This document shows, piece by piece, positions 43,101 through 46,100 of a stretch of DNA of 64,000 nt. This DNA is from Escherichia coli (GTDB lineage: Bacteria; Pseudomonadota; Gammaproteobacteria; Enterobacterales; Enterobacteriaceae): NCBI RefSeq assembly GCF_046105845.1, contig NZ_CP151004.1; one strand, 5' to 3'. How positions within the stretch are numbered: position 1 is the stretch's first letter; each line of letters opens with the position of its first letter. A program made the position numbers.

Positions 43101-46100
43101 ACATGGCCTTTCAGCTGTGTGGTGCCGCGGACCATGTTTTCACAAGCGATGATGTTCAGCGGGGATTCATTACCTTGTTCTTTACGTTTCACCAGCCCTT
43201 TGGCGATTGCCGGGGCAATACGTTCCAGCACAACCGGACCAACGGCGGTAGTGACTAAATCAACCTGAGCAATCAGATCAACGACATCATCACCAATGCT
43301 GCTGACGGCATTGACGCCGGAAACGGTATCTACCTGCTCGGTTTCACCGACCACATGAACCTGATAGCTATGACGGGCATTCAGGGCATCAAGTACCACC
43401 TGATTGACATCGGCAAACGTCAGTTGGATACCCGCGTCTGCCAGCAGTTTACCGATAAAGCCACGACCGATATTACCTGCGCCAAAATGTAATGCTTTCA
43501 TAGTATTAACCTTCATCAATGTTTTTACCCGAGAGGGCTGGGGTGAGGCTTTTCCCTCACCCAAACCCTCTCCATGTGGAGAGGGTGAGATTGTATTACT
43601 TACGACCAGCCAGCAGTTCCAGCACTTCATCCACGCTGGTGGTGTGTGCCAGACGCTCGATGACAGTCTCATCATCCAGTGCATTGGTCAGGCTGGTGAT
43701 AACCTGAATGTGCTCGTTGTTACGGGCAGCAATACCAATCACCAGACGGGCAATGTCATCTTCTTCTTCACCGAAGCGCACGCCTTCCGGGTACTGGCAG
43801 AACACGACGCCCGTTTTGAGTACGCGATCTTTCGCTTCAACCGTACCGTGTGGCACCGCGATAGACTCACCCAGATAAGTCGGGGTCAGTTTTTCACGAT
43901 CCAGCATCGCCTGAACATATTCCGGCTCAACGTAACCGCCTTTCACCAGTTGCTCACCAGCAAAACGAATCGCTTCTTCTTTGGTGGCCGCTTTGCGACC
44001 GAGGAAGATGTTCTCCGCGCCTAGCTTGAACAGGTTAGCACTGGAATCGTCAAAGCTGTCTTTCAGACTGTCTTTCACTTTTACTTCGTTTTCAGTATGG
44101 CGCTGGGCAGCAACCAGACGTTCGGTCAGGCTGGTGTACAGGCCGCTGTCGAGGAAGTTGGTCAGCGAAATATGCTGTGCCTGCGGAACCTGGCGCATAG
44201 CGCGTTCGGTCAGGTCACGGTGAGTGATGACCAGGTCCACATCTGGCGGCAGGTTGTTGATCGCGCTGTTAGTGACCGAAATCTGCGACAGACCTGCATC
44301 CTGAATTTTCTTACGCAGCACGCCTGCGCCCATCGCACTGGAACCCATACCGGCGTCACAGGCAACGATGATTTTACGTACGTGGCTCAGGTCGTTAGTC
44401 ACATCGCCCGCAGACAGCGGGGACGCACCTTTAGACTCAGCTTTCATGTCCTGCATACGACGAGTTGCTGCTTCAATATCATCTTCTTCTTTCACTTTGC
44501 TGGTTTTCAGCAGAATGGCAGAGACAACGAAGGAGACAGCCATCGCCGCACACACACCCGCGATGTTAGCGAAATAAGCACCTTTTGGTGTCATCGCCAG
44601 TACAGCAAGGATAGAACCCGGAGATGCCGGAGAAACCAGACCACCGCCCAGGATAGTCAGCGTGAACACGCCAGTCATACCGCCGAGAATAACGGCCAGA
44701 ATCAGACGTGGATTCATCAGCACATACGGGAAGTAGATTTCGTGGATACCACCCAGGAAGTGGATGATTGCCGCACCGCCCGCAGATTGTTTAGCACTGC
44801 CACGACCAAAGAACATGTACGCCAGCAGCACGCCCATACCTGGACCTGGGTTAGCTTCAATCAGGAAGAAGATGGATTTACCCAGTTCATGGGACTGCTG
44901 AATACCCAGCGGCGAGAAGATACCGTGGTTAATGGCGTTGTTGAGGAACAGGATTTTCGCCGGTTCAACAAAGATAGACGCCAGCGGCAGCATGTCATGG
45001 ACAACCATGAAGTTAACGCCCGCAGCCAGCATTTTGGACAGGGCTTCAACAATCGGGCCAATGCCGAGGAATGCCAGAATAGCGAGGATCATCCCGATGA
45101 TGCCAGCGGAGAAGTTATTCACCAGCATCTCAAAACCGGATTTGATCTTACCGTCTACCCAGCGGTCGAAGTGCTTAATGCACCAGCCGCCCAGCGGACC
45201 TGCAATCATAGAACCGAGGAACATCGGCATGTCTGCGCCGACGATAACGCCCATGGTGGTAATGGCACCGACTACGCCGCCACGTTCGCCGCCTACCAGC
45301 TTACCACCGGTATAACCGATCAGCAGCGGCAGGAGATAAGTGATCATCGGCCCGACCAGCTTCGCCAGCGTTTCGTTCGGTAACCACCCTGTTGGAATAA
45401 ATAACGCGGTGATGATACCCCACGCGATAAACGCGCCGATATTTGGCATCACCATGTTGCTGAGGAAACGACCAAAGCTTTGCACTTTGATCTTAATATC
45501 GGATGACATAAAAACACCCCTTCTTATGTTTGCTGTCGCGCAGGCTGGAAGCCCGAGGTTTTTTGTTAATGTGGCGGCAGAGGTAGCCGGACCTTGTAGA
45601 TACTGCGAAATCTGGCACTGAATCGGTTAACTGTCCAGTCGACGGCCTTTTGTGTGATATCGGTCACATAAATATAGGGGGTAGAGAGGTAATTGACGTG
45701 ATACTCATCACAAAACGCTTGTGTAAAAAAGCAACAAGGCGGCGATTTTCGCTAAAAATGGCATTTAAATGTGAGTAATGTCACATTTTTGTTTTGTTGG
45801 TTTGTTGAATCTTTGTGATCTGAATCACAAGATATTTTTTTACGGCGTTCACCTGATGTGATCTACAGCATGTTATGCCTTCGTCATAAAATCGTTATGT
45901 AACTAAGCAACTCATCACCTCTAAAAATTATTCTTTGGTGTTATGGCGAGAATCGCGAACCCGAATTATTGTCAAAATATCAGCCTGACTCCCTTCTGGC
46001 TGCCAGCCAAAAAACAACACCGATAAACGTGAATCCGAGGCAGATATGTTTCTAAACTATTTCGCGTTGGGAGTGCTGATCTTCGTCTTTCTGGTGATTT

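Follow-up and report, generated by a model that had tools for sequence, protein, structure and literature searches.

What are two adjacent GC-rich dyads doing in the middle of the mannitol operon of Escherichia coli, between mtlA and mtlD? The question is raised by a 64,000-nucleotide (nt) stretch of E. coli contig NZ_CP151004.1 (assembly GCF_046105845.1), here called the window, in which the mtlA-mtlD spacer occupies positions 43502-43595 (94 nt) and both flanking genes lie on the minus strand. The 501 bases around the site were matched in 5405 of the 5426 complete genomes of the species, most closely, at 99.8% identity, in strain CFIAFB20140388 (O158:H23), and the names mtlA and mtlD are those that RefSeq gives to the flanking genes there. 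An earlier note on this DNA had described two dyads in the spacer and had proposed an intra-operon RNA structure that could set differential mRNA stability or partial termination. Both dyads were found where it placed them, GGGTGAGG at 43541-43548 with CCTCACCC at 43555-43562, and CCCTCTCCA at 43566-43574 with TGGAGAGGG at 43577-43585 (plus strand). We identify them with high confidence as a degenerate tail-to-tail pair of BoxC repeats, also termed PIT or the TM_ECO "intrastrand triplex motifs", and the explanation that we favour, at a probability of roughly 45%, is that this pair may be constrained as RNA and may serve as an intercistronic decay barrier tuning mtl expression.

RNA folding prediction in the mRNA sense recovered precisely the two noted hairpins, with a minimum free energy of -40.3 kcal/mol as compared with -24.5 +/- 3.0 kcal/mol for dinucleotide shuffles of the spacer (z = -5.3; 0 of 200 shuffles as good as the native sequence), while the antisense strand gave z = -3.5. 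The earlier note had overlooked that the motif recurs a third time, as GAGAGGG (plus strand, 43531-43537); this copy reads CCCUCUC in the mRNA and is termed b5 here. The whole spacer can accordingly be read in the mRNA sense as UACAAUCUCA-CCCUCUCC(b1)-ACAU-GGAGAGGG(b2)-UUU-GGGUGAGG(b3)-GAAAAG-CCUCACCC(b4)-CAG-CCCUCUC(b5)-GGG-UAAAAACAUUGAUGAAGGUUAAUACU-AUG. All of these features lie on the minus strand. Block b1 (ACCCUCUCC, 43578-43586) is the 5' arm of hairpin 1 and the pyrimidine block of the BoxC/TM unit; it is followed by the loop ACAU (43574-43577) and by b2 (43566-43573), which supplies the 3' arm of hairpin 1 or, via b5, the base of a long hairpin. Beyond linker l2 (UUU, 43563-43565), b3 (43555-43562) forms the 5' arm of hairpin 2 and, in the DNA triplex model of the TM motif, is the block that supplies the third strand; the loop GAAAAG (43549-43554) separates it from b4 (43541-43548), the 3' arm of hairpin 2 and the start of a truncated, inverted second BoxC unit. 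Linker l3 (CAG, 43538-43540) is the partner of l2, b5 pairs with b2 in the long-hairpin fold, and the conserved GGG 3' of b5 (43528-43530) is possibly the remnant of a collapsed hairpin from the second BoxC unit.

Inclusion of b5 extends the dyad to an inverted repeat with 18-nt arms (43531-43548/43555-43572; b2-l2-b3 against b4-l3-b5), and the alternative fold is one long hairpin of -34.6 kcal/mol, or of -38.5 kcal/mol when b1 is unavailable. Computed on a slightly longer stretch, the two-hairpin fold (b1:b2 + b3:b4) reaches -40.7 kcal/mol and makes up about 95% of the ensemble for the window allele. The favoured fold is species-dependent, the Pseudocitrobacter and K. oxytoca orthologs preferring the long hairpin. 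There are two occurrences of GAGAGGGNNNGGGTGAGG in the 64-kb window, on opposite strands and both within this spacer, the expectation for the window being 0.05; three further matches to GGGTGAGG in the window lie in unrelated sequence with no additional repeat copy nearby. An Rfam covariance-model scan of window positions 40000-47000 returned nothing at E <= 1.

The consensus of the TM_ECO/BoxC unit is CCCTCNCCC-N3-6-GGGNGAGGG-N3-GGGNGAGGG, of which MG1655 has 23 listed copies, with tail-to-tail inverted A+B pairs at five loci; the intrastrand triplex was found in single strands only, and none in vivo (Holder et al. 2015, PMC4666352). Neither the 23 published K-12 copies of that paper nor its supplements include the mtl copy. 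The window reads CCCTCTCCA-CA-TGGAGAGGG-TTT-GGGTGAGGG, in which blocks 1 and 2 match the consensus at 8 of 9 positions, and a strict regular expression of the consensus does not match it. For comparison across species, one genome per species was scanned with MtlD, giving 80 loci, and the mtlA-mtlD spacer was extracted from each. The strict published consensus is matched exactly by the first unit in 24 of 81 orthologous spacers (e.g. in Pseudocitrobacter, Pluralibacter and Enterobacter), and the Escherichia copy can therefore be regarded as a slightly decayed form of the canonical unit; a relaxed three-block architecture with 8-nt blocks is found in the window and in 43 of the 81 spacers. Like other members of the family, the mtl copy has the three-block unit, here CCCTCNCC(C)-loop-(G)GGAGAGGG-N3-GGGTGAGGG, is intergenic and GC-rich with indel-prone flanks, and shows the inverted pairing seen at the five K-12 loci. 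It differs from them in that the window copy has 8-nt instead of the canonical 9-nt blocks and a UUU linker, and in that the second unit is truncated and lacks a hairpin of its own. In the K-12 fepB-entC pair, both the tail-to-tail layout and the CCCTCACCCCAGCCCTC junction agree with the mtl element, but the central spacer is longer and the second unit complete, whereas the mtl centre is short and the second unit truncated.

The BoxC family is reportedly treated by Bergler (1992) and by Hoyne et al. (2000). Upstream of K-12 fabI, which we take to be the region where BoxC was first described, the repeat reads GGGGAGAGGGTTAGGGTGAGGGGAAAAGC and, over a longer stretch, ...CCCCTCTGGGGAGAGGGTTAGGGTGAGGGGAAAAGC...; this copy is a canonical one, and when it was used as a query the median E. 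coli genome had 19 matching places, as befits a dispersed multicopy family. It is number 9 in Table 1 of Holder et al. (PMC4666352). BLAST of the 62-nt mtl element against the E. coli genomes found the mtl locus only (median 1 place per genome), because of its divergence from canonical BoxC and the stringent E-value of a 28-Gb database. Judged by its sequence, the mtl element is a degenerate, not a canonical, member of BoxC and hence no new kind of element. This identity was missed in the earlier note, as was the status of the 94-nt spacer as a deletion allele, to which we return.

Orthologs of the mtl copy were found in 66 of the 80 related species, from Escherichia to Mangrovibacter. In 62 species the locus parses into the five blocks, which immediately precede the ribosome-binding region of mtlD, and in 4 more a diverged version is present; the genera with all five blocks include Escherichia, Citrobacter, Salmonella, Klebsiella, Enterobacter, Kosakonia, Lelliottia, Leclercia, Pluralibacter, Phytobacter, Siccibacter, Cedecea, Buttiauxella, Yokenella, Atlantibacter and Mangrovibacter. 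Median block identity to the window is 96%, on which the parse, allowing at most 2 substitutions per block, sets a floor, as against 55% at the fourfold-degenerate sites of the adjacent mtlD. The loops vary in both length and sequence (4-12 nt for loop 1, 6-19 nt for loop 2). A small open reading frame (ORF) in the spacer was ruled out, the loop-length indels not being multiples of three. Between the mtlA stop and b1, lineage-specific insertions and deletions have gathered while the core was retained every time: REP/BIME arrays in Escherichia, and other REP-like palindromes in Citrobacter, Salmonella, Klebsiella, Phytobacter and Cedecea. ERIC/IRU-like elements of about 125 nt (…GTGAATCCCCAGGAGC…GTGACTGGGGTGAGCG…) lie just upstream of the core in Citrobacter werkmanii, C. 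youngae and the Enterobacteriaceae isolate RIT691 (L019, L021 and L058 of our sample). Vertical inheritance of the mtl copy at this site seems to go back to the early Enterobacteriaceae.

Cedecea neteri (L069) carries an extra canonical BoxC in the opposite orientation upstream of the core (reverse complement CCCCTCGCCCCTCCGGGGAGAGGGTCGGGGTGAGGGG), and a second unit of opposite orientation also stands upstream of the core at L063, L075 and L081; the mtl site thus seems to attract additional BoxC copies. Pantoea and Mixta differ, the BoxC element being replaced there by an unrelated GC-rich double palindrome of -43 kcal/mol (z about -4.5). This palindrome, GGGGCGGGcaaGCCCGyCCC, is present in two copies, foldable as two hairpins or as one long one, and was seen in a few Enterobacter-labelled genomes as well; the loci concerned are L077, L079, L080, L082, L083, L085-L089 and L091-L093, where it lies just upstream of extract position 1201. 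With an unrelated structure in the equivalent spacer, it seems that strong folding at this junction is important in itself.

The substitutions within the stems point to the strand on which the constraint acts. Alignment A1 comprises 66 distinct orthologous cores aligned with MAFFT, in which b1 is misaligned owing to the length variation of loop 1; hairpin 1 was therefore scored by block-anchored counts, outside A1 and RNAalifold. The RNAalifold consensus on A1 is the long hairpin, which is 93% paired with both-side changes at 6 of its 18 pairs. For the structure tested as a whole, 7 double-changed pairs were counted as against 2.6 in shuffles, and the covariation score was 0.098 as against 0.085, with 0 of 500 shuffles reaching the observed value in either case. 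By the block-anchored counts, every position of hairpin 1 is paired in 56-59 of 59 sequences, and positions 1-2 of l2 pair with l3 in 59 of 59 distinct parsed sequences, the compensations between the linkers including UUC/GAA, CCA/UGG and UCA/AGG. Compensation between b3 and b4 takes the form GGGUGAAA/UUUCACCC, for which other genera show G·U intermediates, Franconibacter has the compensated arms GGGAAAGG/CUUUCCCC, and both arms of hairpin 1 are expanded in K. michiganensis by a matched TC/GA.

Among the non-Watson-Crick cells of the three stems, 44 are G·U and 4 are A·C on the mRNA strand, a ratio that the opposite strand would reverse; these cells are phylogenetically non-independent, and a by-eye estimate gives about 10 or more C-to-U events against about 2 G-to-A events. 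Such an excess of G·U over A·C would be expected only where it is the mRNA strand that must pair; a strand-symmetric DNA property or a protein site would not give such a bias. The mtl copy is under purifying selection, of the type that folding of the mRNA strand would lead one to expect. The intra-operon RNA structure proposed in the earlier note is supported by a fold better than its shuffles, by orthology over the 66 species, and by variable loops, compensatory changes and the G·U bias.

Within E. coli, the 62-nt core was found in 5404 of 5426 genomes (99.6%), unlike the canonical BoxC spacers, which are retained in 50-65% of genomes: at a coverage of at least 80%, the K-12 BoxC-pair spacers lldD-trmL, hrpB-mrcB and ygfF-gcvP were kept in 2715, 3536 and 3025 of the 5426, a contrast that is indicative only, being confined to E. 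coli and to three K-12 spacers with differing query designs. The window itself has an lldD-trmL spacer of 47 nt (30118-30164) without BoxC, where the K-12 spacer, at 197 nt, contains TM_ECO copies 17 and 18 in the numbering of Holder et al., which form a canonical BoxC pair.

The length of the mtlA-mtlD spacer varies around this core. In a survey of 59 E. coli genomes taken at even steps down the match ranking, the spacer measured 228-229 nt (the K-12 type) in 37 genomes, 94 nt in 11, 318-319 nt in 9, and 161 nt and 419 nt in one each; a 520-nt allele exists too. The long alleles comprise an extra hairpin, h0 (CCCACCCTCTCCACATGGAGAAGGTGGGG), then one to several BIME units and then the core. 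This h0 + BIME arrangement also occurs in E. albertii and a divergent Escherichia genome, and the long form is therefore probably ancestral in the genus. Locus L015 (NZ_JAATUR010000010.1), from a species representative labelled E. coli SCPM-O-B-8794, is 74% identical to the window at the fourfold sites of mtlD, E. albertii standing close by at 67%; to judge by these values it probably belongs to a divergent Escherichia lineage. The common 94-nt allele, that of O157:H7 among others, retains the core's own loop TCAC, while the window allele retains the h0 loop ACAT and is rare (6 genomes at an identity of at least 99%); gone from it are the extra hairpin and the REP/BIME array that precede the core in K-12. 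We infer that the 94-nt alleles go back to at least two independent recombination deletions between h0 and hairpin 1, with different crossover points. The 161-nt allele is a third deletion, and b1-b5 are intact in all of them. The REP consensus palindrome (GCCKGATGCGRCG...CGYCTTATCMGGCCTAC) was not found in the window spacer and is present upstream of the core in the 229-520-nt alleles. The REP-containing spacer of K-12 and the short 94-nt spacer are thus alleles around one conserved core.

Of the two mechanisms suggested in the earlier note, differential mRNA stability is the one that we favour as reasonable. Once transcribed, the element would fold as two hairpins (b1:b2, b3:b4) or as one long hairpin (b2-b3:b4-b5). 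Endonucleolytic cleavage would then occur downstream of the hairpins, the putative site being the conserved A/U-rich linker UAAAAACAUUGAU (short form UAAAAACAUU; 43515-43527, minus strand), which is predicted to be single-stranded. Exonucleases advancing 3'-to-5' would be halted by the very stable structure in which the mtlA cistron ends, so that the mtlA segment would outlive the mtlD-mtlR segment and the MtlA : MtlD : MtlR ratio would be set. The paradigm for such an arrangement is malE-malF, where REP stem-loops are said, after Newbury, Higgins et al. in 1987, to stabilise intercistronic mRNA in malEFG. The mtl element resembles REP/BIME in its stable GC-rich hairpins just 3' of the proximal cistron of a sugar-transport operon and in the upstream-mRNA protection to be expected of them, and real REP/BIME units share its spacer in K-12 and many other strains; it differs in being unrelated to the REP consensus, in that the window allele has no REP, and in that its protective role is putative. 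We know of no RAYT-type mobilisation for BoxC. REP-structured mRNAs are exonuclease barriers whose degradation requires RNase R and PNPase (PMC12320835). According to Choe et al. 2017 (PMC5320558), MtlR is needed and acts in very few copies, and cells with constitutive MtlD grow more slowly, with both of which a decay-barrier role would fit. The literature searched contained nothing relevant on an mtlA-mtlD structure or processing site and no account of the family-wide orthology and RNA-type constraint of the mtl copy.

Several observations weigh against this explanation or against the evidence for it. With an nhmmer profile built from the 23 K-12 copies, the three best matches of the 64-kb window are all located within the spacer, on both strands, yet their E-values are weak (0.2, 1.3 and 10, after a composition-bias correction of 9-11 bits). 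The covariation is modest, as the blocks are near-invariant, and kinship among the sequences inflates the significance against shuffles; in Citrobacter and Salmonella, GGUUGAGG introduces a mismatch into hairpin 2. REPs adjoin the core in most E. coli strains and could act as the barrier there, which would make the core seemingly redundant. The BoxC family is described as having no assigned function, and the work of the Maher laboratory, to the extent that it is summarised in the same paper, found PIT/BoxC to be without promoter or terminator activity and without effect on RNA polymerase in vivo (PMC4666352). That null activity argues against partial termination and leaves mRNA decay unaddressed.

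The rival explanations differ in how far the same evidence carries them. A functionless or selfish BoxC pair, conserved through a DNA-level property of the family such as a triplex, a cruciform, biased repair or gene conversion, is unlikely, though it deserves to be taken seriously: the family is dispersed and without known function, the neighbourhood is an indel hotspot as reported for TM loci, and further intra-operon BoxC copies exist, e.g. at pstA-pstB. Such a pair would, however, hardly be expected to show positional orthology over 66 species with blocks at 96% against 55% at synonymous sites, nor to keep a signature of its own (UUU/CAG linkers, truncated second unit) that has not been homogenised to the canonical E. 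coli copies; the excess of G·U over A·C is unexpected for a property of duplex DNA, and canonical spacers have been lost in 35-50% of the E. coli genomes that almost all keep the mtl core. Rather improbable is a translational device, in which a hairpin 6-14 nt past the mtlA stop impedes terminating ribosomes and/or a switch between folds modulates mtlD initiation. Liang, Rudd and Deutscher (Mol Cell 2015) reportedly observed that REPs within about 15 nt of stop codons impede terminating ribosomes, and the first stem of at least 6 bp does begin at a median of 8 nt after the stop, at no more than 15 nt in 59 of 81 spacers; the element also abuts the conserved mtlD ribosome-binding region, and its two fold energies are close (-40.7 against -34.6 kcal/mol, or -38.5 with b1 blocked), with a preferred fold that depends on species. 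Yet the distance to the stop is not conserved, exceeding 15 nt in 22 of the 81, and REP, BIME and ERIC insertions alter the stop-adjacent sequence; b5 moreover has no convincing complementarity to the GAAGG Shine-Dalgarno, and no ligand or trans-acting factor is suggested.

Very improbable is a DNA-level inverted repeat bound by a protein, for instance the DNA-binding partner of MtlR, or a cruciform. Its appeal lies in the symmetry of the half-sites GAGAGGGnnnGGGTGAGG, which are separated by 6-19 bp, and in the finding that MtlR shows no demonstrable DNA binding, so that a partner protein has been postulated (PMC5320558). Genetic titration, however, places the action of MtlR at the promoter region (PMC5320558), a spacing of 6-19 nt between half-sites and the G·U asymmetry suit RNA pairing better than a fixed footprint, and the motif stands at some 20 unrelated loci as well. 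The spacer as an RNA or DNA target of MtlR was set aside on the same titration. As for the partial termination raised in the earlier note, the element is no intrinsic terminator, and a leaky terminator or attenuator reducing mtlD-mtlR transcription is hardly credible. What speaks for one is the presence of GC-rich hairpins in the transcribed interior of an operon, as in a Rho-independent terminator, and the Pantoea analogue, whose palindrome is followed by the U-rich UUUCGUCAUUU, making that structure a possible leaky terminator. In Enterobacteriaceae the hairpins are instead followed by CAGCCCUCUCGGGUAAAAAC, so that neither has the U-run of a terminator 3' of it, and the genes that follow are part of the same operon; a terminator and promoter scan found no site within 43502-43595 on either strand, and PIT/BoxC is reported as inactive in the summary cited above. 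The decay barrier remains the explanation that we prefer to each of these.

The flanking genes are laid out on the minus strand as follows. The mtlA ORF spans 43596-45509, by ORF call and by the annotation of the near-identical genome; its stop codon TAA (43596-43598) lies 9 nt upstream of the hairpin 1 stem in the mRNA. The mtlD start codon ATG is at 43499-43501, its Shine-Dalgarno GAAGG at 43510-43514, and mtlR at 41766-42353. Around the Shine-Dalgarno a weak hairpin AUUGAU/GUUAAU (window 43502-43520, alignment A1 columns 99-115) is 81% paired across species, with one pair varying from G·U to A-U; it may be incidental. Further away, between the mtl operon and lldP, a minus-strand ORF of 1808 amino acids (34202-39628) is absent from K-12 at this region. 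Its Pfam matches are an ESPR signal, a YadA head, 14 YadA stalk stretches and a YadA anchor, and it is therefore a trimeric autotransporter adhesin; the adjacent ORF of 227 amino acids (39672-40355) has no Pfam match.

Overall, BoxC/PIT/TM repeats have been known for three decades and studied as possible DNA triplexes and as sources of genome instability, with no function found. A far-reaching possibility, which we consider quite improbable, is that the mtl element, as the one BoxC copy conserved across the family, is an RNA switch whose two near-isoenergetic folds set mtlD-mtlR expression, showing that BoxC/PIT act or arose as RNA modules and not as DNA triplexes; if true, this would for the first time assign a function to repeats that have lacked one since 1992. 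The mtl copy is fixed in E. coli, orthologous across most of the sampled Enterobacteriaceae genera, and evolves about 10 times more slowly than the neighbouring synonymous sites, with substitutions that obey the pairing rules of RNA on the mRNA strand. It thus offers an easily mutated test case, both for the function of the BoxC family and for the ratio of transporter, dehydrogenase and low-copy repressor in the mannitol operon.

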